A stretch of 64,000 bases of DNA from Acidimicrobiia bacterium (GCA_009843865.1 VYCQ01000035.1:27978-91977), one strand, 5' to 3'; counted from the first letter of the stretch, positions 40,000 to 59,180 are shown. A program made the numbers and translations. The notes: a model not told the origin generated them from the letters alone.

Positions 40000-40072
40000 C
40001 AGGGCAGGAGGGACTCGAACCCCCAACCGCCGGTTTTGGAGACCGGTGCTCTACCAATTGAGCCACTGCCCT
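40000..40072 (-). tRNA. tRNA-Trp (anticodon CCA)
   Basis: The reverse complement AGGGCAG-TG-GCTC-AATTGGTA-GAGC-A-CCGGT-CTCCAAA-ACCGG-CGGTT-GGGGG-TTCGAGT-CCCTC-CTGCCCT-G folds as a 73-nt cloverleaf. No CCA is encoded. Confidence 0.93.
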
Positions 40073-40152
40073 AAGTTAGGGGTTCTTCTAGGCTACAGTG
40101 CTTAGCTCTTCTATCGGCAATACAAAAACCTTTGTCATCCAGAAAACCAATC

Positions 40153-40356
40153 TCAGCTCCGGTTAACTCGTCGACGAGCAATCAGGGTCGCAGCAGCCAG
40201 ACTGGCCCCAGCCAACCACCGTTTCGCTAGACGCTGCCGCCGATCATACTGATCCAAACGACCCATAACCTTCCACACCAAGATGGGGTGTGCCTCCTCT
40301 GGAGAACGCTGAGCCGCGCGGCGGTTAACATCAGTACTAATAGCGCTAGAACTCAC
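40153..40356 (-). CDS. Small protein coupled to the ECF sigma factor (possible anti-sigma factor)
   Basis: 67-aa ORF with a 4-nt overlap with the sigma gene stop. It has one hydrophobic segment, 'WLAGASLAAATLIA'. No recognisable ZAS motif, so the function is inferred from position only. Confidence 0.4.
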   Translation of the reverse strand: MSSSAISTDVNRRAAQRSPEEAHPILVWKVMGRLDQYDRRQRLAKRWLAGASLAAATLIARRRVNRS

Positions 40357-40976
40357 GCAACCTCCTCTTCAGGATGCAGCACATCACGCAGACGCTGACG
40401 GGCACGATGCAGCCGCACCTTGGCTGCGGTAGTGGTGATGCCCAGCTCAGCGGCGATCTCACTATGAGTTAAATCATGCAGCCCTCGCAACACAACAACC
40501 TGACGCAACCGCTCAGGCAAAGCACGGATAGCTCGATCCACATGTTGCCGCAACACAGCAGCTTCAACTCGCAAGCAGGGATCTTGTTCTAGGCGCACAT
40601 CATGAACAGATGTGTCCTCGTGCAGCTCATCGGTGTAATGGCGCGAGCGACGACTCAGATGGGTAGAGGCACAGTTAATGGTGATGCGATACATCCACGT
40701 TGAGAAACTGGAATCCCCCCTAAAACGGCGAATGGCTCGATACGCCCGCACGTAAGCGTCCTGCACCACATCACTAGCATCCTCAGCATTTCGGGTAAGC
40801 CGATAGGCCAACGAATAAATATCGCGATAAGAAGCACGTACCAGATCATTAAACGCATCCCTATCCCCGTGCCTAGCGGCTGTCACCAACTCGACGCTTT
40901 TATCTACCGAATATTGGATGTCTGCCTGACCGTGAACCTGTACCCGATTGTGTCCCTGCGCAGCTTCGATACCCAA
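40353..40976 (-). CDS. ECF-type RNA polymerase sigma-70 family factor
   Basis: Region 2 'YRDIYSLAYRLTRNAEDASDVVQDAYVRAYRAIRRFRGDSSFSTWMYRITINCA' and region 4 HTH 'LTHSEIAAELGITTTAAKVRLHRARQRL'. The exact start is uncertain. Confidence 0.9.
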   Translation of the reverse strand: MGIEAAQGHNRVQVHGQADIQYSVDKSVELVTAARHGDRDAFNDLVRASYRDIYSLAYRLTRNAEDASDVVQDAYVRAYRAIRRFRGDSSFSTWMYRITINCASTHLSRRSRHYTDELHEDTSVHDVRLEQDPCLRVEAAVLRQHVDRAIRALPERLRQVVVLRGLHDLTHSEIAAELGITTTAAKVRLHRARQRLRDVLHPEEEVA

Positions 40977-41051
40977 ACACTACAGTCTGAACAACAAAAG
41001 ATGCCAACAAAATGCTTGCACCTCCCAAGACAAAAATAGATAGATGGACGG

Positions 41052-41125
41052 TAGCGGCGGCCAGACTCGAACTGGCGACCTCTCGATTATGAGTCGAGCG
41101 CTCTTACCGACTGAGCTACGCCGCC
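41052..41125 (-). tRNA. tRNA-Met (anticodon CAT; elongator-type, Ile2/lysidine type not excluded)
   Basis: The reverse complement GGCGGCG-TA-GCTC-AGTCGGTAA-GAGC-G-CTCGA-CTCATAA-TCGAG-AGGTC-GCCAG-TTCGAGT-CTGGC-CGCCGCT-A is 74 nt. It lacks the three G-C pairs of the initiator anticodon stem. Confidence 0.88.
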
Positions 41126-41168
41126 CCAGAATCCATATAGCAGCCTTGAAGCTGCTAGCAGAACCCTG

Positions 41169-41241
41169 AGCCTCCTGAGAGAATCGAACTCTCGACCTTT
41201 TCCTTACCATGGAAACGCTCTGCCGACTGAGCTAAGGAGGC
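41169..41241 (-). tRNA. tRNA-Thr (anticodon GGT)
   Basis: The reverse complement GCCTCCT-TA-GCTC-AGTCGGCA-GAGC-G-TTTCC-ATGGTAA-GGAAA-AGGTC-GAGAG-TTCGATT-CTCTC-AGGAGGC-T is 73 nt. Confidence 0.92.
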
Positions 41242-41312
41242 GAAAAGCAAACTTTACCTTGCAAGGGGGGCAAACCGTGCCACTTGGTATTTATGGGGCT
41301 AACTTGACCTCA

Positions 41313-41840
41313 ATGATGATTCGAGCAGCCCGTCTCGCAGATGTTGCTGGCATCTGCGAGATCATCAACCATGAGATTTTGTATGACACCAACATCTTTG
41401 AGCTAGAACCCCGCACCCTGGCCGCTCAACAAACCTGGTTGCAAGATCGCAAAGGAGTACACGCTGTGTTGGTGGCCTCGGCCTCCGATAACGACAGCCA
41501 AGTTTTAGGCTTTGCATCTTTATCTCCTTTTCGCTCTCGCTGCGCTTATAACAGCACCGTGGAAAACTCGGTGTATGTGCATCAAGACCACAGGGGCCAA
41601 GGAATCGGAAAAGCCTTGCTGACGGAAACGGTTAGCTTGGCCAAAAGCCATGGATTTCACACCGTGATCGCCCGAATTTCAGGTGGCAATGAAGTCTCAG
41701 TTGCAGTACATCGTTTGGTTGGTTTCGAGGTAGTGGGAACCGAGCGTGAAGTGGGTCGCAAGTTTGGCCGCTGGCTAGACGTAATCGTGATGCAGCTAAT
41801 GCTAAACGAGCAAACATCTCAGCAATCATCGCAGTGCTAA
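41313..41840 (+). CDS. GNAT family N-acetyltransferase (phosphinothricin/amino-acid N-acetyltransferase-like)
   Basis: 'MMIRAARLADVAGICEIINHEI' N-terminus and motif A 'HRGQGIGKALL'. The start is set at ATG 41313 inside the tracked ORF. Confidence 0.85.
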   Translation: MMIRAARLADVAGICEIINHEILYDTNIFELEPRTLAAQQTWLQDRKGVHAVLVASASDNDSQVLGFASLSPFRSRCAYNSTVENSVYVHQDHRGQGIGKALLTETVSLAKSHGFHTVIARISGGNEVSVAVHRLVGFEVVGTEREVGRKFGRWLDVIVMQLMLNEQTSQQSSQC

Positions 41841-41897
41841 GCACGGGCTTGAAGACCCGCCATTCAGTCTCAGCAGTGAGACCAACAATGAGGTTTG

Positions 41898-41980
41898 TGG
41901 GCCGGGGAGGATTTGAACCTCCGAAGGCTAATGCCGACGGGTTTACAGCCCGTTCCCTTTGGCCACTCGGGCACCGACCC
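41898..41980 (-). tRNA. tRNA-Tyr (anticodon GTA, long variable arm)
   Basis: The reverse complement is GGGTCGG-TG-CCCGAGTGGCCAAAGGGA-ACGGG-CTGTAAA-CCCGT-CGGCATTAGCCTTCGGA-GGTTCAAATCC-...CCGGCCC-A. It closely parallels the E. coli tRNA-Tyr architecture. Confidence 0.9.
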
Positions 41981-42047
41981 AACCAAGCAACAACCCTACC
42001 TGCCTAATCTGCGCCGAACCCATTCTGTGGCTAAACTTGATGGCCTT

Positions 42048-42122
42048 GCGCTTGTAGCTCAGTTGGAATAGAGCGTCTGACTACGGATCAGAAGGCCGGG
42101 GGTTCGAGTCCCTCCAAGCGCG
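42048..42122 (+). tRNA. tRNA-Arg (anticodon ACG)
   Basis: GCGCTTG-TA-GCTC-AGTTGGAATA-GAGC-G-TCTGA-CTACGGA-TCAGA-AGGCC-GGGGG-TTCGAGT-CCCTC-CAAGCGC-G. Confidence 0.92.
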
Positions 42123-42177
42123 CTTGCTTCTGCAAGCCAACCACGGCCACACCTAGTACTTAAAGGGCAGCAACAAG

Positions 42178-45643: not shown

Positions 45644-46699
45644 ATGTCCCCCGCTGATCGCGCTTCTGGGAATCATCGTATTCCACTGAAAGAGAACAGG
45701 ATGGTCAAACTCGGCGGGCGGCAGGTGCATGTGACAGAGGTGTTTTGGTCGTATTGGCGGCTAGCAGCTGAGCGACAGGCGATCTTTTTTCGCCGCGTGT
45801 CTGAAGAAGCTGGCCCGTGGACCGACGATCCCATTTTGGGCCGCTACAGGTTTACAAATGCATATCGCGCGTCAGATCGAGTAAGTCAGTACCTGCTCCA
45901 TCATGTGATCTACGACGAGGAGCGAGATGCCCTTGACACAATCCTGCGCGTTCTGCTTTTTAAGATTTTCAACAGGGTGAACACCTGGGAGTACCTGGTT
46001 GATCGCGTAGGACAGCCGACAGCAACTGGCTACAACACCGATGCATACATGAAAGCGTTGGACGAGCTGCTCGAGCAAGGCCGACGCGTGTATTCAGCGG
46101 CCTACATAATGCCGAATCCGCAGCTTGGTGCAAACCGCAAACATCACAATCATCTGTCTCTGGTCGAGATGCTGCTGCGGACGGGTGTAATTGCAGACCT
46201 TGAGAAAGCCAGTTCGCTGAGATCCCTGTATGAACAGCTCTGCGAAGTACCGTCGTTTGGCCCATTCTTGGCATTTCAGTACGCCATCGATCTGAACTAC
46301 TCACCGCACTTCGAATTTGACGAAATGGAGTTCGTTGTGGCGGGCCCAGGTGCTTTGCGGGGTATTGGCAAGTGCTTCGCGGACACCGGCGGCCTCGACG
46401 CGGCCAGTGTGATCGCAGCAATGGCGGATTCGGCGACTGGCTTCTTTGAAACGACTCCGATGCTGACACCGTTTCGGGACTTGTGGGGTCGTTCTCTTCA
46501 ACTCATTGACTGTCAGAACCTATTCTGCGAGGTCGACAAGTATGCCCGAGTCGCTCACCCCCAACACTCGGTGGATGGGCCGAGCCGCATCAAACAGGTG
46601 TACCGGACTGACCACCGACCCTTGACACTGGGCTACCCACCGAAGTGGGGATTACCGCTTTCCGCGCAGACCCCATCCTTCTTCGGCCTAGCTAGCTAG
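45644..46699 (+). CDS. Putative DNA base hypermodification protein (alpha-glutamyl/putrescinyl-thymine pyrophosphorylase, aGPT-Pplase-like)
   Basis: 351-aa ORF. The N-terminal pattern 'WSYWRLAAERQAIFFRR...GPWTDDPILGRYRFTNAYRASDRVSQYL' matches my recollection of the aGPT-Pplase / 'nucleotide kinase domain-containing' family signature. The assignment is motif-based only. An alternative start is ATG 45701. Confidence 0.5.
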   Translation: MSPADRASGNHRIPLKENRMVKLGGRQVHVTEVFWSYWRLAAERQAIFFRRVSEEAGPWTDDPILGRYRFTNAYRASDRVSQYLLHHVIYDEERDALDTILRVLLFKIFNRVNTWEYLVDRVGQPTATGYNTDAYMKALDELLEQGRRVYSAAYIMPNPQLGANRKHHNHLSLVEMLLRTGVIADLEKASSLRSLYEQLCEVPSFGPFLAFQYAIDLNYSPHFEFDEMEFVVAGPGALRGIGKCFADTGGLDAASVIAAMADSATGFFETTPMLTPFRDLWGRSLQLIDCQNLFCEVDKYARVAHPQHSVDGPSRIKQVYRTDHRPLTLGYPPKWGLPLSAQTPSFFGLAS

Positions 46700-46729: not shown

Positions 46730-46758
46730 TTGACGCTTGATGTCAGATAATCTAACAT
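46730..46758 (+). promoter_or_regulatory. Candidate sigma-70-type promoter placing the transcription start at or next to the carrier-protein ATG (leaderless mRNA candidate)
   Basis: TTGACG (46730-46735), a 17-nt spacer, then TAACAT (46753-46758). Only 7 nt separate the -10 element from the ATG at 46766, and no Shine-Dalgarno sequence is present. Confidence 0.3.
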
Positions 46759-46765
46759 TCATGTC

Positions 46766-47095
46766 ATGGCGAATGACATTGACACGGGGAGCATCTCCCC
46801 ACCTCAACGTAAACCTGAGAGCACGGTCAATGTCCGCGGACTCAGCGAGAGCGAGCTTGAGATCTATGTAAGCGCTTTGCTCACGAGCATCGGTGAAGCC
46901 CCAAGCGGTTCCAGTGCTGGCGTGGCTAGCCTCGCGGCGGTGTGGGTGATCAGTCAGGTCGAAGAAGCATGCGGAGGTGGACACCTCGTCAATCCCAAGG
47001 ACCTCACCAAAGATGATTTCGCTACTTCAACAGCCCTGAGCCGAATGCTGCATCGGCAGATCCACAAGCAAGATGCACCACTAGTTGAGTTATGA
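46766..47095 (+). CDS. Acyl/peptidyl carrier protein-like ORF
   Basis: 109-aa ORF. 'ELEIYVSALLTSIGEAP...SAGVASLAAVWVISQVEEACGGGHLVNPKDLTKDDFATSTALSRML' fits the four-helix carrier layout, with 'GVASL' in place of the G-x-D-S-L phosphopantetheine-attachment site (Ser retained). Its stop overlaps the next ATG (ATGA), and an AcpS-type PPTase lies two genes downstream. Confidence 0.5.
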   Translation: MANDIDTGSISPPQRKPESTVNVRGLSESELEIYVSALLTSIGEAPSGSSAGVASLAAVWVISQVEEACGGGHLVNPKDLTKDDFATSTALSRMLHRQIHKQDAPLVEL

Positions 47096-47922
47096 GTGAC
47101 CTGCTCGATACAACCAAGACGCTGAGTGAGGCATGGCTCCGGGCACTGGCACATGCGGCCAGTCAGCGGAAAGGCCGCTGCGTTCACCTGGTGATGACAG
47201 TTGAGAGTCCCGGCTTAGAGGACGAGACCATTCGCGACGTGCTCGACCTAACGCTCGATGAGGCGGGAGACCAGAGCGTAGAGACGGTTGCGGGAACAAT
47301 TTTCCCGAACTCGCTCTACCAGAGTCCCGGATTCTCGTGGTCGCCCGACCTCGATGGGCAGTCAGTCAGACAGCTAGATGCTGCTGCAAACAACCTTTAT
47401 GAGCGCTACGTGAGCATGCTGACCGTGTTGCGGAGAGTCCGAAGGAACAACCGAGGAACTTATTTCTCGCGAATGATCACCTGGCCGGGCAAGGATGCCG
47501 ACGGAACGAATCAATTGGACCTGAGGATCTCTCGCATTCGCAGTGAGTTTGCGAGAGGGCATCGAACCAACAACACGCTTGACATTGATGTTGGTGCCGA
47601 TGCCCTCGCTCCAGAATTGCTAACCGGAATACAGGTCTATATGCCGAGCGAGCAACGGACGCGGAGCTTTCCCTGCTTAGTGCATATCGATTTGACCTTG
47701 TTCGAAGGAACGTTGCACTGCACAGCCGTGTACCGCCACCAGTACCTCATCACAAAGGCATACGGGAACTTGGTCGGCCTCAGCCGTCTGATGCACTTCT
47801 TGTGCGAACAGACGGGTACTAAGTGCGGCGAACTGGTAGTCCATGCAACGTTGGCCGACGCGGAACCCGATCACCGACCGAAGCCACTAGCACTCGTGAA
47901 GTCGATGGGAGCGCTGCTGTGA
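47092..47922 (+). CDS. Divergent thymidylate-synthase-fold protein
   Basis: 276-aa ORF. 'SFPCLVHIDLTLFEGTLHCTAVYRHQYLITKAYGNLVGLSRLMHFLCEQTGTKCGELVV' aligns by eye with the TS core '[59 protein letters not shown]'. The P-C nucleophile and the Asn are retained. The D of 'RSxD' and the 'DxHxY' block are not. Confidence 0.5.
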   Translation: MSDLLDTTKTLSEAWLRALAHAASQRKGRCVHLVMTVESPGLEDETIRDVLDLTLDEAGDQSVETVAGTIFPNSLYQSPGFSWSPDLDGQSVRQLDAAANNLYERYVSMLTVLRRVRRNNRGTYFSRMITWPGKDADGTNQLDLRISRIRSEFARGHRTNNTLDIDVGADALAPELLTGIQVYMPSEQRTRSFPCLVHIDLTLFEGTLHCTAVYRHQYLITKAYGNLVGLSRLMHFLCEQTGTKCGELVVHATLADAEPDHRPKPLALVKSMGALL

Positions 47923-48422
47923 AGGGCGACGATGCCCCTGTGGCTTTGCCGTCAACGGCTCTCGCTTCAGCAATGGATGCCGCGACGTTGGCTGAAGATC
48001 GCGACGGGGTCGTAGGTATTGGGATGGACCTCATATCGGTCCCAAGAATGGACCAACTTGTTTCCGAAGGCAGGCCAGCGTTTCTTGACCGTGGCTGGAC
48101 ACCAAGCGAATTAGCCGAAGCCGATGGTGACCCGGAACGGCTCGCCACACGGTGGGCTGCGAAAGAGGCGGCGATGAAGTGCTTAGGACTGGGGATCAGC
48201 GATCTCGACCCGCGAGACATCGAGATCACTACGTCAGAATCGGGGGCTCCGAAGGTCGCGTTACGTGGTCCGGCTGCCGAACGTGCCCAATCGCTTGGTA
48301 TCTCGAAGCTTCATGTCTCTGCCTCACATGAATGTGGCTGGGCTGCGGCAATCGCAGTTGCATCCAAATGGACGGGACAAGAGGATCTGGAAGTGCCACA
48401 TCAACGAAAGGACAAATCATGA
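47919..48422 (+). CDS. 4'-phosphopantetheinyl transferase, AcpS (holo-ACP synthase) type
   Basis: 'VVGIGMDLISVPRM...RWAAKEAAMKCLGLGI...DIEITTSESGAPKVAL...LHVSASHECGWAAAIAVA' matches AcpS blocks (GxDxxxxxR, KEAxxKA, SxSH). The GTG start at 47919 overlaps the upstream TGA (GTGA). An alternative start is ATG 47973. Confidence 0.75.
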   Translation: MKGDDAPVALPSTALASAMDAATLAEDRDGVVGIGMDLISVPRMDQLVSEGRPAFLDRGWTPSELAEADGDPERLATRWAAKEAAMKCLGLGISDLDPRDIEITTSESGAPKVALRGPAAERAQSLGISKLHVSASHECGWAAAIAVASKWTGQEDLEVPHQRKDKS

Positions 48423-48796
48423 GCATGGACGAACCCGAGTCCGACGCTAGCGAGCAGATTGCGTTCGCGCGGCGACTACGGGAAGCACGCGAGTACATTG
48501 GACTCCTCCAAGAGGATGTCGCGACTGCGCTGGACATTCCCAGAGCGAGCGTGTCGGCGATCGAGTCTGGGAAGCGTCGGGTCTCGTCGCTCGAGCTCAG
48601 GCGTCTAGGCCGCCTATACCGCCGACCCGTGTCGTGGCTGCTAGGAGAAAAGAGCACTGAAGCCGACATGAATGCGCCCCTGTATCGGGCGACCGAGGCG
48701 CTGTCGGACCAAGACAAGGAACAGGTCTTGCGTTTCGCAGAGTTTCTCGCCGGGGCGGGTCGACCCGGGGCCACCCGAGCCGAAGAAGCGGAGTAG
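48419..48796 (+). CDS. XRE-family helix-turn-helix transcriptional regulator
   Basis: 'IAFARRLREAREYIGLLQEDVATALDIPRASVSAIESGKRRVSSLELRRLGRLY' is a classic HTH_3/XRE domain. Its ATG overlaps the PPTase stop codon (ATGA). Confidence 0.85.
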   Translation: MSMDEPESDASEQIAFARRLREAREYIGLLQEDVATALDIPRASVSAIESGKRRVSSLELRRLGRLYRRPVSWLLGEKSTEADMNAPLYRATEALSDQDKEQVLRFAEFLAGAGRPGATRAEEAE

Positions 48797-48799
48797 CCC

Positions 48800-50110
48800 G
48801 TGCCTTCCGGATACAAACACCGACTCATGGCTGCAAGCTCCGCGAACCGGCTCTTGACCGAGGCGGGCGTGGACCAGGCGCGCCAGGTGGATGTGTTCGG
48901 CTTGATCGAAAGTCTCGGCTTGTGGCTCGCCTTTTTTCCGCTCGATGGGCTCTTGGGGGCGTACCTGCCAGAAGGGACAGGCGGCATCCTCATCACTACT
49001 GAACGTTCGACGCCAATCCAGCGGTACACCGCGGCGCACGAGCTCGGTCATTGGCGACTCGATGGCGGCCACGATGCTGTACTCGATACGGAGGCAGACG
49101 TGCTGGGACCCACCGACATCGAGCGGGAGACTCTTGCACAGGTTTTCGCTGGGGCGCTGCTGATGCCGCCCCCACTCGTTCACAGCATTCTGTCGCGCCG
49201 CAATGCAACGTCGCTTAGCCCATTAGCCGTCTACACAGTCGCCCGTGAAGCAGGTATCAGCTATGAGGCTGCTGCGAGGCAGCTGTACCATCTCGAACGG
49301 ATCACGCAGCACGAACTGCGAGAGCTGCTCAAGGTGCAGCCGCTAAAGGTCAAACAGGCAATTGGTGCCGGACGCCGACCAGTGGTCGGCATTGCGGACG
49401 TTTGGCCGGTTGACATGGCTTGGCGCGACCAACAACTCGACGTTCGGACAGATGACGAGATCATTATTTCGCTACCCGAAGACCGCAGTACCGGCTACAG
49501 GTGGTCGATCCCAGTCACCGGCCCAAGTCCACGACGCTCCGCATCACAGCCGCCTCCCCCCTTTGCCGAGGGCGAAATCTCGGACCAGGCCGAGCTAGAG
49601 ATGGCTAAACCGAAAGCAGAGCCACGTCGCAAGCCCCCAGGCCAAGCGATTGACCGAGCGCGTCAACCCGCGCCAAAGAAGAAACCGGAGCCACTTTCCA
49701 TTGCCGGTGGTCGGGCAACTGTGGTCGGCGATGTCTACATCGCAGATGGCTCCTCTCAGGCAATAACCGACTCGGCCATCCGGAGCCGTCGGCTCGCGAG
49801 ACTTGGCACCTCCGAAGCACGGGAAACTCTACAGCAGATTCGAAACGAGAAGATCGCCGTGGGCAAAGTAGGCCGCCGAGTCTTCGGCATTCGGCTGGAA
49901 AAACCAGGCAAAACAGAACTCCGGTTAGTGCTCCGCAACGAGTACAGCGATGCCGAACCAGTCGACGAGTACCGAATCACGGCGGCCGTTGAAACACCGA
50001 GAAAAACGTTCACCATCGATCAGATCAGCGATGGCGGCGACGACTGGGTAGAAATAACACGAGAGCGCCAACACTTGACCACCGCAGCATCGATTGATGA
50101 ATCCCTCTAA
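48800..50110 (+). CDS. ImmA/IrrE-family zinc metallopeptidase fused to a chagasin-like (I42) cysteine-peptidase inhibitor domain
   Basis: 436-aa ORF with a GTG start 3 nt after the XRE stop. The N-terminal half has 'AAHELGHWRLD' (HEXXH of the ImmA/IrrE, DUF955/M78 family). The C-terminal half has chagasin-like loops 'LPEDRSTGYRWSI' (compare NPTTGYxW), 'GKVGRRVFGIRL' and 'LRLVLRNEYSDAEPVDEYRITAAV'. These are split by a Pro/Lys/Ala-rich low-complexity insert of about 100 aa. Confidence 0.65.
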   Translation: MPSGYKHRLMAASSANRLLTEAGVDQARQVDVFGLIESLGLWLAFFPLDGLLGAYLPEGTGGILITTERSTPIQRYTAAHELGHWRLDGGHDAVLDTEADVLGPTDIERETLAQVFAGALLMPPPLVHSILSRRNATSLSPLAVYTVAREAGISYEAAARQLYHLERITQHELRELLKVQPLKVKQAIGAGRRPVVGIADVWPVDMAWRDQQLDVRTDDEIIISLPEDRSTGYRWSIPVTGPSPRRSASQPPPPFAEGEISDQAELEMAKPKAEPRRKPPGQAIDRARQPAPKKKPEPLSIAGGRATVVGDVYIADGSSQAITDSAIRSRRLARLGTSEARETLQQIRNEKIAVGKVGRRVFGIRLEKPGKTELRLVLRNEYSDAEPVDEYRITAAVETPRKTFTIDQISDGGDDWVEITRERQHLTTAASIDESL

Positions 50111-50113
50111 ACA

Positions 50114-50854
50114 ATGTCCAGGTATGATGCAAGGCGGCAGCGCAGCTTGGCTCGGCCACCAGTCGATTTAAGACCGACCCTCACGCCCGCAATCGACCAG
50201 GGAATCCGACCACTCTGCATCCCTATAGTCGTGACCGCCGCTCATGAAGCAAGTCGCACACAGCCTCCAGAGTCGCTCGCACCTGATGCCCTGTGGTCAA
50301 GTTGCGTCGCGAACGGCACAGCATCTCGTGAAGGCACAACACTGGAAGCAGTCGCCGATGCCCTCCAAACAGATGGCCAGCCCACTTTGGCAAACTGGCC
50401 ATTCAATACTGCGATCATTCACGAAGCCGATCAGATTCCGTTAACGGCCCAAGCATCCATCTGGCACCAAGCCAATTTGTCCTCCGTGCCGGTTGCCAAT
50501 GACGGCATCGAAGATGGAATCGAAGACCATCTGACGATAGGCCGCGCTGTGGCACTGATAGTTGAAGTCACGACGGAGTTCGAGCAGGCCACGCCCAATG
50601 ACACCATTGAAGTGCCCCCGTTGACTGCGCCGCAGGGCTCCTACCATGCCGTGTTGGTGGTTGGAGCTCGAACGCACGAAGGGGTTCGAGCTCTGCTGAT
50701 ACGAAACAGCTGGGGACCCGGATGGGGAGCAGGCGGCTACGGCTGGCTGCCATTGGACTATCTCATCGCGTTCGGAGCCCGGGCTGGCGCGATTGACCCG
50801 TCGAGCCTCACAAACAGCACACTGCCGAGCAGATGGGGGACCGACTCCTTATGA
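50114..50854 (+). CDS. Papain-like (C1 family) cysteine peptidase, no signal peptide
   Basis: 246-aa ORF. 'DQGIRPLCIP' places Gln and Cys with papain spacing (Q+6=C). 'GSYHAVLVVG' supplies the His and 'IRNSWGPGWGAGGYGWL' supplies Asn-Ser-Trp-Gly. The N-terminus is hydrophilic, which suggests a cytoplasmic protein. Confidence 0.75.
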   Translation: MSRYDARRQRSLARPPVDLRPTLTPAIDQGIRPLCIPIVVTAAHEASRTQPPESLAPDALWSSCVANGTASREGTTLEAVADALQTDGQPTLANWPFNTAIIHEADQIPLTAQASIWHQANLSSVPVANDGIEDGIEDHLTIGRAVALIVEVTTEFEQATPNDTIEVPPLTAPQGSYHAVLVVGARTHEGVRALLIRNSWGPGWGAGGYGWLPLDYLIAFGARAGAIDPSSLTNSTLPSRWGTDSL

Positions 50855-51378
50855 CAAACGAATCACTCACCCTTACCGAATACCAACGCCGATCCCAACG
50901 AACAGATCACTTCCCGCAGCTCAGCGATGACGAAATCGACCCGCTGCTGGGTCCTCTACTCGGACTCGCGGGTGAAATCGGAACGTTGCTCGCTGGCTAC
51001 AAGAAGCGGCTTCGAGATGGGGCCGCTTATGAACTCTTTGAGGACAATGTTGCAGAAGAACTCGGAGACATTCTGTGGTACACGACCAATGTCGCCGAAA
51101 AGGCCGGACTCTCGCTCGACGAGATCGCCCGAGTCAACCTGGCCAAAACCTCCGATCGATGGCCAGCCCGCGGCAGCCAATCGCCGAAATGCCGGAAACC
51201 ATCAGAGCACTTCGATGCCGGACTACCCCGACAGCATCAGCTTCCCCGCACATTCGCCGTGACGATTCGATCAGTCTCCAGCGACGGGCCCGAACCGCTG
51301 ATCGAGGTGATCTGGAATGGAAAACCCGTCGGCGACCCGCTTGGAGACAACACTTACGACGACAGCGGCTACCGTTAA
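50851..51378 (+). CDS. MazG-like nucleoside triphosphate pyrophosphohydrolase (N-terminal part of an apparently frameshifted gene)
   Basis: All-alpha NTP-PPase motifs 'LLGLAGEIGTLL' and 'VAEELGDILWYTTNVAEKAGLSLDEIARVNLAKT'. The ATG at 50851 overlaps the C1 peptidase stop (ATGA); an upstream ATG at 50833 is also possible. The frame ends at TAA 51376-51378, in the middle of a conserved-looking segment. Confidence 0.75.
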   Translation: MTNESLTLTEYQRRSQRTDHFPQLSDDEIDPLLGPLLGLAGEIGTLLAGYKKRLRDGAAYELFEDNVAEELGDILWYTTNVAEKAGLSLDEIARVNLAKTSDRWPARGSQSPKCRKPSEHFDAGLPRQHQLPRTFAVTIRSVSSDGPEPLIEVIWNGKPVGDPLGDNTYDDSGYR

Positions 51379-51775
51379 CCATGATGCGTTTCACCTGGCC
51401 AACGCCGCTGTCCTGGGTTGGTCGCCCGTGGCCCGGGGCAAGATCTTCAAGCGTAAGCGCCCAAAGGGAACAATAGCTACTGCCGTCGAGGACGGTGGTC
51501 GGGCAATCGTGATCGAAGAGGCGATCGCCGCATTCATGTTCAAGTACGCACACCAACACAATTTTCTCGAAGATGTGCGGCACCTCGACTATCACGCCCT
51601 CAAGACGTTTCGAACCTTCACCGCTGGCCTTGAGGTTGAACAGCGCCATCTCTGGGAAGTCGAGCAAGCCGTACTCCAAGGATTCGACGCATGGCAACAA
51701 CTCCGAAACAACAAAGGCGGAGTTCTGCGGGGCAACCTTGCCACCAGAAAGCTCACCTACACGCCGTTGGAATAA
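51374..51775 (+). pseudogene. MazG C-terminal-domain-like ORF in the +1 frame; probable 3' half of the MazG gene (frameshift, sequencing error or recoding)
   Basis: The frame of tracked ORF 51317-51775 reads ...VNHDAFHLANAAVLGWSPVARGKIFKRKRPKG..EDGGRAIVIEEAIAAFMF.... Deleting one A from 'ttaacc' (about 51375) gives the continuous read ...DNTYDDSGYRYHDAFHLANAAVLGW.... The only in-frame starts (ATG 51317, TTG 51341) would translate an out-of-frame copy of the MazG tail. Confidence 0.55.
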
Positions 51776-51913: not shown

Positions 51914-53242
51914 TCAGTCGTGGAGGTCGTGTTTGAAGTCGTCGAAGAGAGTTGGGCGGACGACAAGCGGGATTTTCTTTACGCCTTCAAATACGCCGTT
52001 GATGTTCGTTGATGTTGCAGACCATCCGATGGCAAGATAACCCGATTCCCCCGGAGCATCCACAAGGATGCATAGTTCGGACGAACCGACGGATTCCGCA
52101 GGTCGCAGGTCGCCCGCATTCCACACGACCTCTACGGCTCTATCGATCTGGATGACGGAGAATTCGGGAGAGTCGAAAGAGGTAGTGAAATTGACTCTCG
52201 GCATCAACATGGCCGAGTCGATGCGTCCGATATCAAACAAACTAGCGCCTTTGCCAAACTGCCTAGGCTTATCTGGCAACCCGACTGCTTCCAACGGAAT
52301 ATCTTCCTTTATCTGGACTCCCTCGATATGTAACCGCACTTCAAGGCTAGCAAAATTTTGATCAGTCAGGTTGCGCAACCGGAGCGAATAAACTCCATAA
52401 CCCGCAAGCATGTAACTCTCTACCCAATGCTGCGGTGCTTTGTGGATCCACTGCGTATGCCATTTATTAACTTCAGACTCATACTTATCAAGCGAGCGCT
52501 GTTCTTTTCCATATACCGTGTCCATTACTGAACTAAAAGACTGTGAAAGAAAGACCTCAGTTTCACCTCCTGTCCCGTAAGCGCGAGCACGTTCAAGTTG
52601 CGAATCTCGTGAAAGATCTGCGATACGTGTAATCTCGGCTTCGACCGCGCTGCGGTTGAACCAACTCATGCGCTCCGCTCCGATGAGCAGCAGGTCGAGA
52701 TCAAGGCGAGCGTGCTTGGCGCGTTGGATGAGGTTCTCAACATCTTGATCATCTGCGCGGCAGGTCTTACCGTTCTTTCTAACGAAGATCGTGCCACGCT
52801 GAAAACCGTCGCACTCCTTGCGGAGAGTGTAGATGGGATCACCGGGCCGAGGTGGGGCGACTTCGATGACAGCGACGGTCTTGTCGTCAACTCTCACAGA
52901 GCGAAGCTGCCAGCTTGGACCCGTTGCTCCAATATAGGGATCAATCCAGTCGTGAAGCTGAGCAGGATCCATGTGGTTCACACCCACGATCGAACCGGGC
53001 TCCGCTCCCACAAGGATGTACCCGTAGCCACCGAGATTGCGAAGTGCGGTTTCAGGCATACGATTCGCCATGCCAAGAACATTCTTAGGCAACGGGAATC
53101 GACCCTCAGTAGATGAGAAATCAAGCGAGCGCTTCCACTCCAACCAATCGGACTCAACAAGGACTACCCCATCTCGAATCTCTTCTACTAGTACCCGAAC
53201 CCGTGCATCACTAAGCGATTCACGTTGCATCAAGATCTCCAT
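51914..53242 (-). CDS. AlbA_2 / Schlafen-like ('divergent AAA') DNA-binding domain protein with an uncharacterised C-terminal domain
   Basis: 442-aa ORF. The N-terminal 180 aa ('ESDWLEWKRSL...KNVLGMANRMP...GGYGYILVGAEPGSIVGV...VAVIEVAPPRPGDPIYTLRKE...GTIFVRKNGKTCRADDQDVENL') follow the AlbA_2 (PF04326-type) pattern. I recognise nothing in the remaining 260 aa. Confidence 0.55.
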   Translation of the reverse strand: MEILMQRESLSDARVRVLVEEIRDGVVLVESDWLEWKRSLDFSSTEGRFPLPKNVLGMANRMPETALRNLGGYGYILVGAEPGSIVGVNHMDPAQLHDWIDPYIGATGPSWQLRSVRVDDKTVAVIEVAPPRPGDPIYTLRKECDGFQRGTIFVRKNGKTCRADDQDVENLIQRAKHARLDLDLLLIGAERMSWFNRSAVEAEITRIADLSRDSQLERARAYGTGGETEVFLSQSFSSVMDTVYGKEQRSLDKYESEVNKWHTQWIHKAPQHWVESYMLAGYGVYSLRLRNLTDQNFASLEVRLHIEGVQIKEDIPLEAVGLPDKPRQFGKGASLFDIGRIDSAMLMPRVNFTTSFDSPEFSVIQIDRAVEVVWNAGDLRPAESVGSSELCILVDAPGESGYLAIGWSATSTNINGVFEGVKKIPLVVRPTLFDDFKHDLHD

Positions 53243-53461: not shown

Positions 53462-53680
53462 ATGACAGACACACCGAAGGCAATGACATTACGGCTTCCC
53501 GCTGACCAGGCTGATGCCTTGGAGTTGGTTGCTGAAGTCGATGGTGTGAGCGTTTCCGAAGCCATTCGAGATGCCATTGAAAGCCACATCGAGAGCCGCC
53601 GGGCCGACAATGGCTTCCAAGAAAGGCTTGCTGTTTCAATATCGCGCTATCAGCGGATCCTCAAACGCCTAGCTGAATAG
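53462..53680 (+). CDS. Ribbon-helix-helix (CopG/Arc-type) protein, antitoxin-like
   Basis: 72-aa ORF. 'MTLRLPADQADALELVAEVDGVSVSEAIRDAIESHI' has the beta-alpha-alpha RHH pattern. Confidence 0.7.
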   Translation: MTDTPKAMTLRLPADQADALELVAEVDGVSVSEAIRDAIESHIESRRADNGFQERLAVSISRYQRILKRLAE

Positions 53681-54181: not shown

Positions 54182-54346
54182 CTAATCGTCTGCAGCCGGA
54201 GGGCTTGCGGACGGATCTACTTGCGGTGATTCGAGTGGCGGGAACAGACCCTTAGGCACACCCTCAGTCCCTACCGAAGCGATAGGGGAATATCCGTTCT
54301 TATGTCGGATCTGATCCTCATACCTAGGTCTCCCGTTCTGAGTCAT
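54182..54346 (-). CDS. Small ORF A (54 aa), translationally coupled to the upstream membrane-protein gene; not in the supplied ORF track
   Basis: My own translation of the reverse strand gives MTQNGRPRYEDQIRHKNGYSPIASVGTEGVPKGLFPPLESPQVDPSASPPAADD. Its ATG (54344-54346) overlaps the TGA (54343-54345) of the membrane protein (ATGA). Confidence 0.5.
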   Translation of the reverse strand: MTQNGRPRYEDQIRHKNGYSPIASVGTEGVPKGLFPPLESPQVDPSASPPAADD

Positions 54347-55026
54347 TTTGCACCTTCCTCCTCGGATCCTGCCCCAAAAGGGATTGGAATAAAGTCTAGC
54401 GTCTCAATATCCCGTGACCTCAAATAAAGGCCCCCCTGAGTCCACGCATAGTCAGCGCCACGCGATATTACATCCCCTGTCTCTTGGTCAAATTGCACGG
54501 CGGCAGCAATATAAAGGTCCTGCTCAACCTTGCCATCTGATGCAAACGACGTTATATACCGACCACAATCGTAGAGACCGCCGACCCACCTCCCTGAGCG
54601 CAACCGACATCGAATAAAACCCGCTTCTCTGGAATCGAACAAATGATCCCACGCTGTTGGCGAACTACCTGGCCCCAAAGCCCTTGCCATCCGAGGGTAC
54701 CTTCGTGCATACCCGCGGAGTTTTAATCCAATCTGCCCTGCGCTCCAACCTGAAAAAGCTGGAACAGTGAGATACCCAATCGGGGCGAGATACACGGGCC
54801 AAGGCAACGTCTTGCCATCTACCAAATCACTCCAATAGTTCATATATAGCCAATGAAGTGGCCAAGCACCCACTGCTAGCCAACCCCCCGCCATACTAGC
54901 GTACCGCAAAAACCAGTCCTTAGCCTTCCCACTGTGTAACGGCCTGATCTGTCCATATGCCCACCCAAAAAACAAGCCAGGAAAAAGCGCAACAGTAAAG
55001 ATGAGAGAGGCACTAAAAACTGACAT
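54343..55026 (-). CDS. Membrane protein of unknown function (N-terminal TM helices plus C-terminal soluble domain)
   Basis: 227-aa ORF. It has hydrophobic segments 'VFSASLIFTVALFPGLFFGWAY', 'MAGGWLAVGAWPLHWLYM' and 'VYLAPIGYLTVPAFSGW', then 'PTAWDHLF...GRWVGGLY'. It may correspond to a DUF family, but I cannot name one with confidence. Confidence 0.6.
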   Translation of the reverse strand: MSVFSASLIFTVALFPGLFFGWAYGQIRPLHSGKAKDWFLRYASMAGGWLAVGAWPLHWLYMNYWSDLVDGKTLPWPVYLAPIGYLTVPAFSGWSAGQIGLKLRGYARRYPRMARALGPGSSPTAWDHLFDSREAGFIRCRLRSGRWVGGLYDCGRYITSFASDGKVEQDLYIAAAVQFDQETGDVISRGADYAWTQGGLYLRSRDIETLDFIPIPFGAGSEEEGAK

Positions 55027-55496: not shown

Positions 55497-56264
55497 GTGA
55501 CTATCACCGACCCCAAAGCCGCACTTGAGGAAGTTCGCCGATTCATCGATCTCCTAATCAAGGATAAAGAACTCCATCAAGAAAAAAGTGATGGGGACGA
55601 TGAGCGGACACGTATCGAAAGCGAGACACTTCGCTTGCAACCGCTGATCGAGGCTATCGGTCGGGAGATCGACCCCGACGAAGACCCAGGCAGGTTCAAG
55701 TATCACACAATCATGGCTGGCATGTGGGGCTGGGGCACGGCGTTAAACGCAGCAGAGCGACTGATTGGTATTCTAGAGCAGCAAGAAAAACGCGCTGCCA
55801 TATTCGGTCAGCAAGGTCCGGTACTGACCGCAGAAAACTTGCACAGATGGATTTGGCATGCGGCGGTCGACCTTTGGGACAGCGGACATTTCAAAGAAGC
55901 CGTCCGCTCCGCGGCAGCTGCGGTCGAAGAACAAACCAGCCTAAAAATCAACCGGAACGACCTCACAGGCACCTCGATATTCAACGAAGCCTTCAGCCTA
56001 GAACCGCCCGAGTCGGGTAGGCCAAGGCTTCGCTTTGCCCATATCGGGGAGACCGCTGGCAGCGGGAAGAAGTCGCAAGAGTGGAAATCGGCGCACGAGG
56101 GGGCGATGGCCTTCGGCCGAGGGTGCTTCCAAGGAATCCGCAACCTTCAGGCTCACGGAACCCGCGATCTCCCGGAACAACAAGCGCTAGAATACCTCGC
56201 AGCTCTGAGCGTGCTCGCGCGTTGGGTTGACGATGCCCGAATAGAAATGAGCAGCAAAAGCTAA
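55497..56264 (+). CDS. TIGR02391 / Hypoth_Ymh-type protein (family often linked to R-M and abortive-infection loci)
   Basis: 255-aa ORF with a GTG start. The C-terminal 'HEGAMAFGRGCFQGIRNLQAHG' and preceding 'FNEAFS...PRLRF' match my recollection of the conserved TIGR02391 core (G...RNxxAH). Confidence 0.6.
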   Translation: MTITDPKAALEEVRRFIDLLIKDKELHQEKSDGDDERTRIESETLRLQPLIEAIGREIDPDEDPGRFKYHTIMAGMWGWGTALNAAERLIGILEQQEKRAAIFGQQGPVLTAENLHRWIWHAAVDLWDSGHFKEAVRSAAAAVEEQTSLKINRNDLTGTSIFNEAFSLEPPESGRPRLRFAHIGETAGSGKKSQEWKSAHEGAMAFGRGCFQGIRNLQAHGTRDLPEQQALEYLAALSVLARWVDDARIEMSSKS

Positions 56265-56529: not shown

Positions 56530-58080
56530 GTGATTACGGGCGAGCTGAAAAGCAAGATCGATGCTGTTTGGAATGACTTCTGGTCGGGTGGGATCTCGAA
56601 CCCGCTGGAGGTGATGGAGCAGCTCACCTATCTGCTGTTCATCAAGGCTCTGGATGAGCGGCAGACGCTGGCTGAAAACAAGGCAAATCAAACAGGGGAG
56701 CCGATTGACGACGTGATCTTCGCTGAGGGGGAGCTATTCCATCCTGAGGGCCGAGCAAGGGGTCGACCCTATGGAGATCTGCGTTGGTCGAGGTTCAAGA
56801 ACATGGCACCTGCAGAGATGTTCAAAGTGGTGGACGAATACGTCTTTCCATTCCTAGAAGAGCGTGCTGAGGACAGTACGCATGCCAAGCACATGAGCGA
56901 TGCCCGCCTCACGATCCCCACCGCAGCTTTGCTTCAGAAGGCAGTCGACGGTCTCGACGCCATCACGATGGCGGATCGGGACACCAAGGGTGATGTCTAC
57001 GAGTACATGCTCTCCAAGATCGCTACAGCGGGACAGAACGGCCAGTTCCGGACGCCGCGGCACATTATTCGCCTCATGGTTGAGATGGTGGCCCCCCAGC
57101 CAGACGACTTGATCTGCGACCCAGCGAGTGGGACGTGCGGGTTCTTGGTGGCAGCTGGGGACTACATCCGAGACAACCACCCGACTGCATTGACAAATCA
57201 AGCACTGGCAAAGCACTTCCACAGCGGGATGTTTTCCGGGTACGACTTCGACAACACGATGCTCCGCATCGGATCGATGAACATGCAACTCCACGGAGTG
57301 CAGAACCCGGATATCAGCTATCGGGATTCTCTGGCGGAGGACCACGCCCATGATGTCGAGGGTTACAGCCTGATCCTTGCCAATCCACCGTTTGCGGGGT
57401 CGCTCGACTACGAAGGCACTGCGAAAGACCTCTTACAGACGGTCAAGACCAAAAAGACCGAGTTGCTGTTCTTGGCGCTGTTCCTGCGGCTCCTCAGGCC
57501 TGGTGGCCGAGCTGCGGTGATCGTCCCCGATGGAGTGCTGTTCGGCTCGACGAATGCCCACAAAGAGCTCCGCCGAATTTTGGTCGAAGACCAGAAGCTC
57601 GAGGGCATCGTCTCCATGCCAGGCGGAGTCTTTAGGCCGTACTCAGGAGTCTCCACTGCGATCCTGTTGTTCGCCAAAACCAACTCCGGTGGAACCGACC
57701 GGGTGTGGTTCTATGACCTGGAGGCGGATGGCTACAGCCTCGACGACAAGCGCACACCTCTTCTCGATGAGGACAAGGTAAAGAACGTAGTCGAGTGGCT
57801 CGAAGACGATGAGCACACGAAGAACAATCTGCCTGATGCACTCGCTCGTTGGCAGGAGCGTGATGGGTCGGAGCTAGAGCGTCCTCCAACTGCGCAGTCC
57901 TTCTGTGTGGCGAAGGGCGACATCATCGCCAACGACTACGACCTCAGCATCAACCGCTACAAAGAGATCGTCTACGACGAGATCGAATACGCGCCGCCAT
58001 CGGAGATTCTGGATGAACTCGCTGCTCTCGAAGAGGAGATCCAGAAAGGAATCGAAGACCTCAAGGCGATGCTGGGATGA
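56530..58080 (+). CDS. hsdM: Type I restriction-modification system, N6-adenine DNA methyltransferase subunit
   Basis: 516-aa ORF with a GTG start. It has an HsdM N-terminal domain, the AdoMet motif 'DPASGTCGFL' and the catalytic 'NPPFAG'. Confidence 0.93.
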   Translation: MITGELKSKIDAVWNDFWSGGISNPLEVMEQLTYLLFIKALDERQTLAENKANQTGEPIDDVIFAEGELFHPEGRARGRPYGDLRWSRFKNMAPAEMFKVVDEYVFPFLEERAEDSTHAKHMSDARLTIPTAALLQKAVDGLDAITMADRDTKGDVYEYMLSKIATAGQNGQFRTPRHIIRLMVEMVAPQPDDLICDPASGTCGFLVAAGDYIRDNHPTALTNQALAKHFHSGMFSGYDFDNTMLRIGSMNMQLHGVQNPDISYRDSLAEDHAHDVEGYSLILANPPFAGSLDYEGTAKDLLQTVKTKKTELLFLALFLRLLRPGGRAAVIVPDGVLFGSTNAHKELRRILVEDQKLEGIVSMPGGVFRPYSGVSTAILLFAKTNSGGTDRVWFYDLEADGYSLDDKRTPLLDEDKVKNVVEWLEDDEHTKNNLPDALARWQERDGSELERPPTAQSFCVAKGDIIANDYDLSINRYKEIVYDEIEYAPPSEILDELAALEEEIQKGIEDLKAMLG

Positions 58081-59180
58081 CGGTCGAGATTTCTCCCAAT
58101 TGGAGGACTGTCCAATTGCATGAGGTTTGTCAACCAAAACAGTGGCAGACCATCAAGAAATCGGAGATGACAGAGACTGGCTTCCCGGTATATGGGGCAA
58201 ACGGGATAATTGGCCGATACCACTCGTTTAATCACACTAAGGCGACGATCCTCATCGGATGTCGCGGCACCTGTGGTGCCATCAATGTCTGTGAGCCCAA
58301 TTCTTGGGTGACAGGAAACGCAATGGCCCTCGATGACTTGGACACATCGCGTGTTGATTTCAATTTCATGGTCTATGCATTAAAAACTGACGAGCTTCAG
58401 AACGCGATAACCGGCACCTCACAACCTCAAATCACACAAACCAGTCTGAAAAGAATCCATCTACCGCTGCCGCCGATCCAAGAGCAGCGGCGAATTGCGG
58501 CGGTGCTGGACGCGGCCGAGGCGCTCCGAGAAAAGCGCCGCCAAACTCTCGTCAGGCTCAACTCCCTAGTCCAATCCATCTTTATCAACATGTTCGGCGA
58601 TCCAGTACGGAACGAATACGACTGGCCAACAGTCCGGCTGGGTGATGTTGCGATTATCGAGCGCAAAGCTGTGTACCCTGGCGAGGTCAACAACCAAGAA
58701 CAATATGTCGGCTTGGAGAACATCACCAGTAACGGAGCAGTCGAAGGCGTAACTACTGCAGGCAAAGCTGACTTGAAGAGCAGCAAGTTCGCTTTCAATG
58801 ACGACCATCTCCTTTACGGAAAGCTGCGCCCGTACCTTACGAAGATCGCCGCCCCCAAATTTGGGGGTATATGCAGCACAGACATTCTCCCGATCAAACC
58901 AGGTGACAGTCTCTACCGCTACTACTTACTGTATTGCTTGCGGACTCCGGCAATGGTGGCCCAAGCAACAAACAACGCGGTGGGCATCAACCTTCCCCGT
59001 CTGAGTCCGACAGTCCTGGAATCTTTTGAAATTCCACTTCCCCCGATAGAGACACAGCGCTGCTTTGACAGCGTTGTACAAGAGATCCATCAGCAGCACA
59101 AGACGCTGAAGACTCAAGCCCACTTACTCGACACCCTCTTCGATTCCCTCCGGCAGCGGGCCTTCAGGGGAGAGCTGTGA
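58077..59180 (+). CDS. hsdS: Type I restriction-modification system, specificity subunit
   Basis: 367-aa ORF with an ATGA overlap with hsdM. Two target-recognition domains are each followed by the conserved helix 'LPLPPIQEQRRIAAVLD' / 'IPLPPIETQRCFDSVV'. Confidence 0.9.
   Translation: MTVEISPNWRTVQLHEVCQPKQWQTIKKSEMTETGFPVYGANGIIGRYHSFNHTKATILIGCRGTCGAINVCEPNSWVTGNAMALDDLDTSRVDFNFMVYALKTDELQNAITGTSQPQITQTSLKRIHLPLPPIQEQRRIAAVLDAAEALREKRRQTLVRLNSLVQSIFINMFGDPVRNEYDWPTVRLGDVAIIERKAVYPGEVNNQEQYVGLENITSNGAVEGVTTAGKADLKSSKFAFNDDHLLYGKLRPYLTKIAAPKFGGICSTDILPIKPGDSLYRYYLLYCLRTPAMVAQATNNAVGINLPRLSPTVLESFEIPLPPIETQRCFDSVVQEIHQQHKTLKTQAHLLDTLFDSLRQRAFRGEL

Follow-up and report, generated by a model that had tools for sequence, protein, structure and literature searches.

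We analysed a 64,000-nucleotide (nt) stretch of DNA from an Acidimicrobiia bacterium (GCA_009843865.1 VYCQ01000035.1:27978-91977; hereafter the window, in whose numbering all coordinates are given) and, within it, three adjacent genes encoding an XRE-family repressor, an ImmA/IrrE metallopeptidase fused to a chagasin-type I42 inhibitor domain, and a papain-like C1 cysteine peptidase. We propose, with a probability of roughly 0.55, that these genes are the control core of a larger operon (46766-51775) which, together with an HMUDK_hel gene, makes up a candidate anti-phage system that modifies thymidine nucleotides or DNA. Domains were assigned with Pfam, NCBIfam and PADLOC v2 profiles, by profile search of the PDB, and by AlphaFold2 (AF2) modelling with Foldseek. 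The three core genes are the following:

48419..48796, plus strand: XRE-family helix-turn-helix (HTH) repressor (XRE), CapH/DdrO/ImmR-like, 125 amino acids (aa); Pfam HTH_31 and HTH_3, ~1e-9
48800..50110, plus strand: ImmA/IrrE (M78) metallopeptidase with a chagasin-type I42 domain (ImmA-I42), 436 aa; Pfam M78 and I42
50114..50854, plus strand: C1A papain-fold cysteine peptidase (C1), 246 aa, cytoplasmic; Pfam Peptidase_C1, AF2/Foldseek

An initial annotation of this DNA had read the 436-aa open reading frame (ORF) as an ImmA/IrrE domain followed by a chagasin-like region, and profile and structural matches bear this out. Peptidase_M78 (PF06114) matches with E 1.1e-11 (45.1 bits against a cut-off of 22) and Inhibitor_I42 (PF09394) with E 1.3e-8 (35.5 bits against 27.2), the latter in two stretches, that is, as a split domain. 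The motif strings quoted in that annotation all lie at the expected residues: 'AAHELGHWRLD' at 78-88, 'STGYRWSI' at 230-237, GKVGRRVFGIRL at 355-366 and RNEYSDAEPVDEYRITAAV at 379-397. The peptidase and a helical linker occupy residues ~12-190, where H80, E81 and H84 (nt 49037-49051) form the HEXXH motif and E110 is a further Glu; all four are invariant among 82 sequences, and in the PDB the M78 domain matches Deinococcus IrrE best (8slm, E 6e-10). The strands of the I42 domain (residues 200-236, 299-315 and 357-398) are confidently placed in an AF2 model built with 82 homologues (predicted local distance difference test, pLDDT, ~78-93). When this model was compared with the PDB, the best 10 of 10 Foldseek matches were chagasin/ICP structures (target-normalised template modelling (TM) score 0.75-0.80, probability 1.0), including chagasin alone, the chagasin-cathepsin L complex, EhICP2 and amoebiasin.

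Conservation within the inhibitor domain is concentrated in its loops. In the window's lineage, loop L2 ('LPExRSTGYRW') is the most conserved stretch of the C-terminal half of the fusion, with 11 of 11 positions conserved at 90% or more, followed by G358-R359-R360 of L4. The equivalents of L2 and L4 in chagasin enter the protease cleft, as in the chagasin-cathepsin L and falcipain structures (2nqd, 2oul), and the window's L2, DRSTGYRW, is close to the canonical NPTTG(F/Y)xW. Two inserts interrupt the domain: a Pro/Arg/Lys-rich one of ~65 residues in L3 (residues ~238-298) and an Arg-rich, partly helical one of ~40 residues within L4 (residues ~316-356). A low-complexity linker interrupting this region had been recognized at the outset and is evident in its composition, with 15 Pro, 7 Arg and 6 Lys among the 68 residues from 238 to 305. 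Compact fusions from Actinomycetes (298-375 aa) have neither insert, and their chagasin loops are canonical, as seen in the relatives P0250, P0270 and L032; the Microbacterium protein has 'LPENPTTGYRW', 'VGEGG' and 'RRPF', and that of Marisediminicola has PSTGYRW, IGGALTR and RPFE. Both inserts in the window protein are thus additions peculiar to its lineage. The domain resembles chagasin/ICP (MEROPS I42) in its immunoglobulin-like fold, in a three-loop signature that is canonical in the compact relatives, and in the pairing of its gene with a C1A peptidase. It differs in that chagasin/ICP proteins are free secreted, periplasmic or lipoprotein inhibitors aimed at host enzymes, whereas here the domain belongs to a cytoplasmic regulatory metalloprotease and, in the window's lineage, is split by the two inserts and diverged in L4 and L6.

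The next gene had been described as a C1 peptidase with an intact Gln/Cys/His/Asn set and no signal peptide, starting after a 3-nt gap, and conservation, fold and hydropathy all agree with that description. The gap (TAA ACA ATG) leaves both genes in a shared frame. Peptidase_C1 matches the 246-aa ORF with E 4e-7 (30.8 bits, cut-off 20.7), and its AF2 model (pLDDT 89) gives Foldseek TM scores of 0.7-0.8 to cathepsins K/L, Der p 1 and xylellain. The catalytic set consists of Q29, C35 (nt 50216-50218), H178 (nt 50645-50647) and N198 (nt 50705-50707); among 67 homologues C35, H178, N198 and W200 never vary, and conservation of Q29 is at least 90%. Typical papain-type C1A enzymes are zymogens with an I29 prodomain and a signal peptide, whereas the peptidase here has neither, since its mature-domain motif 'PPVDLR...DQGxRPLC' starts at residue ~14 ('VDLR...DQGIRPLC' aligns with papain VDWR...NQGSCGSC) and its N-terminus is not hydrophobic (maximum 15-aa Kyte-Doolittle score of 1.3).

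The initial annotation left it to database searches to find out whether the fusion occurs elsewhere and beside what; it does recur, with 349 homologues, and the C1 gene is next to it. Nearly all of the 120 fusion homologues listed carry both Pfam domains, and C1 has 296 homologues. A scan of one genome per species located the fusion in ~33 genomes, mostly Acidimicrobiia metagenome-assembled genomes (MAGs), including the sponge-associated Candidatus Poriferisodalis and Poriferisocius, and also in Acidiferrimicrobium, Saccharothrix deserti and Marisediminicola. A search with the Marisediminicola protein as query extended this range to Microbacterium, Leifsonia, Cellulomonas, Streptomyces umbrinus and Actinacidiphila. 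In RefSeq the protein carries no name more specific than 'ImmA/IrrE family metallo-endopeptidase' or 'protease inhibitor I42 family protein'. ImmA-I42 is followed directly by C1 in all intact loci that were examined, the two genes overlapping or lying 3-100 nt apart, and this adjacency holds across two gene orders and down to ~30% identity, a degree of conservation that rules out chance. Four relatives with no I42 Pfam flag (P0264, P0273, P0285 and P0296) turned out to be frameshifted or truncated copies in which the L2 motif is still present, and a C1 'fragment' in S. umbrinus was a gene-calling artefact, as tblastn shows a full-length gene. A phage origin of the fusion and of C1 was rejected, because tblastn searches of 50,697 phage records gave no match to either; in IMG/VR only generic ImmA N-domains matched.

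Metagenome contigs were scanned with the C1 alignment as query, and the matches, annotated with hidden Markov models (HMMs), fell into three tiers. Tier 1 has the same cassette as the window. Tier 2, with C1 at ~30% identity and including a contig of 49% GC, has a gene order different from that of the window, as set out below. Tier 3 comprises prodomain-less C1 genes without ImmA, several of which adjoin a standalone I42 gene; one of these encodes a 107-aa cytoplasmic protein and others are lipoprotein-type. Pairs of a standalone I42 gene and a ~300-aa prodomain-less C1 occur on unrelated contigs (L169:2107-3443, L161:375-1928, L165:1999-3570, L143:644-1942 and L172:10-1587). Such pairs are possible two-gene protease/inhibitor modules, and because they exist, the association of I42 with C1 predates its capture by ImmA. 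Altogether, it is plausible that the I42 domain is a cognate partner that binds the neighbouring C1 peptidase, given the strict linkage and coupling of the two genes, the conserved loops, a C1 enzyme with no other latency device, and the independent I42-C1 pairs.

How the core might be controlled is suggested by the region upstream of the first gene of the operon, which contains the following element:

46730..46780, plus strand: operon promoter and operator; -35 TTGACG at 46730-46735, -10 TAACAT at 46753-46758

In the clade of the window, the operator is a 17-bp near-palindrome, TGTCAGATAATCTAACA, at 46741-46757, and a second inverted repeat, ATGTCAT-N6-ATGACAT at 46761-46780, lies across the start codon of the first gene, which encodes a carrier-like protein. 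In the alignment, the stretch from TTGACA to the start codon is almost invariant and the flank upstream of it varies. Across classes the region reads TTGACA-N4-TGTCGGA(A/T)TATCCGACA-...-ATG, in which a perfect 7+3+7 palindrome, TGTCGGA-N3-TCCGACA (TGTCGGAATATCCGACA), sits between the -35 and a weak -10 located seven bases before the start codon. Loci of Saccharothrix, Marisediminicola, Microbacterium and Streptomyces, as well as marine loci, have this perfect-palindrome architecture. Of 37 loci, 30 have the palindrome, each as a single copy placed just 5' of the carrier gene. The spacing from promoter to start codon suggests that the operon transcript is probably leaderless. XRE is the only DNA-binding protein encoded in the operon, and most plausibly represses the whole operon from this conserved palindrome. 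Its start at 48419 is correct, as its orthologues are 125 aa long and the start forms an ATGA overlap with the upstream gene.

Several features recall the CapH/CapP pair, as well as DdrO/IrrE and ImmR/ImmA, switches of defence operons in which an XRE-type repressor is likewise encoded directly 5' of a HEXXH peptidase of the M78 type; here a 3-nt gap separates the two genes. In PADLOC the closest profiles are capH and capP: capH matches XRE over the entire profile (E 1.9e-13), and capP matches ImmA-I42 (E 4.7e-18) only at profile positions 6-153 of 242, that is, over the peptidase and linker. The cut in CapH falls at F82|R83 (bioRxiv 10.1101/2022.04.27.489752). In the XRE alignment, R90 is invariant, preceded by Y, F, L or A, and lies at the start of the C-terminal helix, making Y89|R90 the putative cleavage site of the window protein. 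An aromatic-Arg pair conserved at a CapH-type cut site, a palindromic operator in the regulated promoter and a location in a defence island are thus shared with CapH/CapP. The C-terminal half of the metallopeptidase is where the two systems part. CapP and IrrE combine a peptidase, an HTH and a GAF domain and bind single-stranded DNA (ssDNA) between peptidase and GAF, and about a third of CapP proteins have a cysteine-switch loop. In ImmA-I42, the C-terminal GAF that forms the ssDNA groove is replaced by the I42 fold, and its 436-aa sequence does not contain a single cysteine and therefore has no cysteine-switch loop. Taking together the operator, the capH and capP matches, the partial coverage of capP and the conserved Arg site, we infer that XRE and ImmA-I42 form an autoregulated, CapH/CapP-like switch that has I42 in place of the GAF sensor. 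The trigger probably differs from that of CapH/CapP, because the GAF is replaced, the cysteine switch is absent and the pair lies mid-operon.

These features suggest the following model. An XRE dimer bound to the 17-bp palindrome, which covers the promoter spacer and the -10, would hold the operon, its own gene included, at a basal level. Once triggered, the M78 domain of ImmA-I42 would cut XRE at the aromatic-Arg site at the start of the C-terminal dimerisation helix, and this would derepress the operon, as CapP does by acting on CapH and IrrE by acting on DdrO. The I42 domain would take the place of the signal-sensing GAF and wedge its three loops into the active-site cleft of C1. Since C1 lacks a prodomain, it would be born inhibited, made 1:1 in a complex with the ImmA-I42 encoded by the coupled upstream gene, and the trigger would free it to act as an effector or to process another component of the operon. 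At its simplest, such a complex would serve as a safety latch that holds an effector or processing protease in check until the switch fires.

The genes that this switch is predicted to control, and the HMUDK_hel gene beside them, are listed here:

45644..46699, plus strand: HMUDK_hel (5-hmdU-kinase helical domain) gene with its own promoter; Pfam PF18723, E 3e-99
46766..47095, plus strand: small carrier-protein-like ORF, 109 aa; conserved in 30 loci
47092..47922, plus strand: thymidylate-synthase-like enzyme, 276 aa, with a 'FPCLVH' Cys motif; NCBIfam TIGR03283, E 3.4e-9, residues 188-253
47919..48422, plus strand: AcpS-type 4'-phosphopantetheinyl transferase; Pfam ACPS E 9e-15, TIGR00556 E 9e-22
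50851..51775, plus strand: MazG nucleoside triphosphate pyrophosphohydrolase fused to MazG_C, last gene of the operon; Pfam MazG and MazG_C on two fragments

The product of 46766-47095 is a putative relative of acyl or aminoacyl carrier proteins. In support of this, Ser55 ('VASL') is invariant in the alignment as the putative phosphopantetheine attachment site; 5 of the 6 best PDB matches of its profile are carrier proteins with this Ser aligned to the phosphopantetheine site, at E values of only 0.1-1; a variant lineage carries a DSL motif at this gene; and a phosphopantetheinyl transferase (PPTase) is conserved with it. The ORF has no Pfam match, and its hhalign comparison with E. coli AcpP is not significant. 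Within the cassette the carrier ORF is always paired with a PPTase. An ATGA overlap joins it to the gene of the thymidylate synthase (TS)-like protein, whose match to Pfam Thymidylat_synt is only E 0.056; its orthologue at L069 is weakly flagged Thymidylat_synt. The PPTase likely starts at the GTG at 47919, overlapping the TS-like stop codon; the longest ORF runs from 47823 and the orthologues are 166-167 aa long. At the 3' end, an ATGA overlap joins the C1 stop codon to MazG-MazG_C, which in the window is split by a 1-nt insertion near 51376-51378 that creates a TAA stop and a +1 frameshift. In DNA alignments with L007, L001, L009 and L031 the insertion appears as an extra A ('CGTTAAC' against 'CGGTAC' in L007, L001 and L009), and the orthologues are single ORFs of 297-315 aa; the split may mark a genuine pseudogene or else stem from a homopolymer sequencing error. 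All junctions within the operon of the window are ATGA/GTGA overlaps or 3-nt gaps, which indicates that 46766-51775 is a single translationally coupled operon.

The same order, small ORF, TS-like, PPTase, XRE, ImmA-I42, C1 and MazG-MazG_C, is seen by tblastn and in ORF tables at nearly every locus. Almost every related locus also has HMUDK_hel, which lies on the same strand when it is upstream and on the opposite strand when it is downstream. In Tier 2 the order is Sfp-type PPTase, carrier, XRE, compact ImmA-I42, C1, TS-like and MazG-MazG_C, with HMUDK_hel on the opposite strand; the carrier has a canonical DSL/DSK motif, and the Sfp-type PPTase stands in for the AcpS-type enzyme. XRE, ImmA-I42 and C1 are contiguous in both of these eight-part arrangements. 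In Pfam neighbourhoods, the Microbacterium locus has the core with a bona fide thymidylate synthase and without MazG, that of S. umbrinus has the core and a thymidylate kinase, and a marine metagenome contig has the core with both a thymidylate kinase and TS. Loci of the second lineage include L138:2616-8622 and L135:3571-10588, as well as L128, L131 and L152. L135 has an additional gene of the uracil-DNA glycosylase (UDG) family, and L135 and L032 each have an additional gene for a ~690-aa calcineurin-like phosphoesterase, which in L032 shows a weak thymidylate-synthase-like match in its C-terminal half (E 0.012). A short contig of an Akkermansiaceae MAG (L034:777-2764) encodes XRE and a 284-aa ImmA without I42, followed directly by a TS-like gene, and has no C1 gene, a hint that TS-like cassettes outside Actinomycetota can also be under XRE/ImmA control, there without the protease/inhibitor pair.

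The cassette lies in defence or mobile islands. In the window, the island 3' of the cassette contains these genes:

51914-53242, minus strand: Schlafen/AlbA_2
53462-53680: ribbon-helix-helix (RHH) protein
54343-55026, minus strand: DUF6338
55497-56264: Hypoth_Ymh
56530-62593: complete type I restriction-modification (R-M) system, HsdM-HsdS-HsdR

The cassettes of L001 and L069 likewise have a Schlafen/AlbA_2 gene beside them, and neighbours in other relatives include Abi_2, AbiTii, AbiEii, an integrase, TniQ and a DUF4411/M78 pair. The window itself is chromosomal; the island is bordered by S1-domain and pcrA genes, a cluster of five tRNAs (Trp, Met, Thr, Tyr and Arg; 39999-42123) lies just upstream of these, and large ORFs lie further upstream (28610-36157). 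The cassette is often disrupted: two copies of a DDE transposase lie inside ImmA-I42 at L018:2640-6000, MazG is interrupted at L006:8200-9870 by a DDE transposase and at L020:8310-9460 by a transposase-like HTH ORF, a DDE transposase separates C1 from MazG at L028:7350-10300, and deletions have truncated the cassettes of L025, L027 and L029. These insertion-sequence (IS) interruptions and truncations suggest that the system is costly. The most economical reading of this context is a role in defence or conflict by way of thymidine-nucleotide or DNA modification.

A precedent for such a gene set is DS-4 ('NTTI', DefensePredictor, PMC13092281), which in E. coli consists of a TS, an adenylate-kinase-like kinase, HMUDK_hel, TIR and Nmad2 and experimentally reduced phage plating; in the same work MazG, MazG-C and related nucleotide-modifying domains are predicted, unvalidated defence domains (PMC13092281). 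HMUDK_hel is the only component clearly shared with DS-4 (homologue WP_087900470.1, 28% identity, E 7e-31). More loosely, both systems have a TS-type enzyme and a nucleotide kinase (MazG_C or dTMP kinase here) and both occur in a defence context. The differences are considerable: among the cassette and window ORFs scanned there is no TIR or Nmad2, the TS-like protein here has no pairwise similarity to the DS-4 TS, and DS-4 is without carrier, PPTase, XRE, ImmA-I42 and C1.

A number of points weigh against our reading of the system as a defence cassette under a protease-inhibitor switch. The case for a defence role is contextual throughout; in PADLOC only XRE and ImmA were matched, and neither PADLOC nor NCBIfam has a name for C1, the TS-like protein, HMUDK_hel, MazG or the Schlafen gene. 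As regards binding of C1, L4 in the window's lineage reads GKVGRR against the canonical GxGG and L6 reads RNEY against RPW, and the ~40-residue insert in L4 could alter binding. As regards the switch, the AF2 model is poor near the M78 active site (residues 40-95, pLDDT <50), and CapH/CapP is encoded upstream of and divergently from the genes it controls, whereas the pair here is mid-operon, on the same strand and coupled on both sides. Finally, both partners would be made 1:1 from one mRNA, so induction alone would not free C1, and no release step is evident.

Other arrangements of the same parts deserve consideration. One is a two-protease relay, in which C1 docked on I42 would be the sensor or activator, and inhibitor binding, instead of ssDNA binding to a GAF, would flip the XRE switch. 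The relay would gate a host-encoded, carrier-dependent pathway of thymidine-nucleotide or DNA hypermodification or depletion (TS-like, PPTase and carrier, MazG-kinase and HMUDK_hel) as a new kind of inducible defence. We consider this doubtful, although of the alternatives it is the one to which we would give most credence. A related idea is that I42 is the regulatory input of ImmA, the occupancy of I42 by C1 setting ImmA activity; by a guard-type logic, binding or inhibition of C1 by a phage protein, or cleavage of that protein by C1, would be sensed and lead to cleavage of XRE. The I42 domain does occupy the exact position of the sensor domain in IrrE and CapP, ImmA-I42 has no cysteine switch, the catalytic residues of both proteases are conserved, and protease sensors are an emerging theme in defence. 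Yet the argument is purely architectural: nothing points to allostery between I42 and M78, there is no candidate for a phage ligand, and we regard the idea as unlikely.

The initial annotation favoured a self-contained, 'toxin-antitoxin-like' triad, an autonomous abortive-infection module in which C1 is the toxin and I42 the antitoxin, the inhibitor being destroyed or shed by ImmA once this is activated. A prodomain-less, cytoplasmic C1 with an intact catalytic set would fit the part of the toxin, the Pro/Lys-rich inserts could serve as protease-sensitive fuses, and antitoxins combining HTH and M78 are known from RosmerTA (RmrA HTH-M78 antitoxin, RmrT toxin), in which they are linked to a downstream effector and whose RmrA profile gives weak matches here. 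However, in ~60 loci and two gene orders the three genes were found only within the larger eight-part cassette and never alone, and on this point the earlier proposal is not supported. In addition, the compact fusions lack the inserts that would act as fuses, the operator lies upstream of the first operon gene and not of the triad, and the triad is disrupted no more often than MazG, which is hit in the window, L006, L020 and L022. RosmerTA is itself different, in that HTH and M78 are separate proteins here, the RmrA matches are weaker than those to capH and capP, and the system here is not a two-gene unit. An autonomous toxin-antitoxin module thus appears improbable, to much the same degree as I42 serving as the sensor of ImmA.

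It is equally unlikely, in our judgement, that the C1-fold enzyme is a processing enzyme or transacylase of a carrier-dependent pathway, for example one that matures a protein of the operon or acts on a carrier-bound thioester, with I42 timing or limiting its activity. A carrier and a PPTase, whether AcpS-type or Sfp-type, are conserved with C1 in both gene orders, and Lee et al. are said to have described in 2018 phage thymidine-hypermodification pathways that attach amino acids or polyamines. Against this, an adenylating or loading enzyme is missing from the cassette, members of C1A are peptidases, and a chagasin wedge implies tight, near-complete inhibition and not tuning. The least probable alternative is a housekeeping one, in which the operon would be an IrrE/DdrO-type stress regulon for DNA damage or for sanitising nucleotide pools, as the Deinococcus IrrE matches of the M78 domain, the adjoining pcrA/uvrD gene and the sanitising of deoxynucleoside triphosphate pools ascribed to MazG enzymes might suggest, but its patchy distribution, its integrase, TniQ, Abi and R-M neighbours, its frequent inactivation by IS elements or frameshifts, and the likeness of its gene set to phage thymidine-hypermodification genes and DS-4 all speak against this.

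Each part of the cassette is already known; what appears to be new is the fusion of I42 to ImmA, its dedicated cytoplasmic C1 partner, and the eight-gene cassette with its carrier and PPTase. The searchable literature and PADLOC v2 hold no description of any of these, and an earlier in-silico description is possible. If our reading of XRE, ImmA-I42 and C1 as the control core of an anti-phage operon is true, it would reveal a new regulatory logic for XRE/ImmA switches, in which the sensor domain has been swapped for a protease-inhibitor domain that comes with a dedicated intracellular cysteine protease. Chagasin-family inhibitors and C1 peptidases, which are usually studied as secreted host-parasite factors, would likewise gain a role in the bacterial cytoplasm. 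The eight-gene cassette defined here is conserved across Actinomycetota and at least one other lineage, is found in defence islands and is absent from PADLOC v2. With a component shared with DS-4, with a carrier and a PPTase encoded beside TS-like and MazG enzymes, and with cultured hosts that include Microbacterium, Streptomyces umbrinus, Saccharothrix and Marisediminicola, it offers a tractable candidate for a new nucleotide-based anti-phage mechanism.

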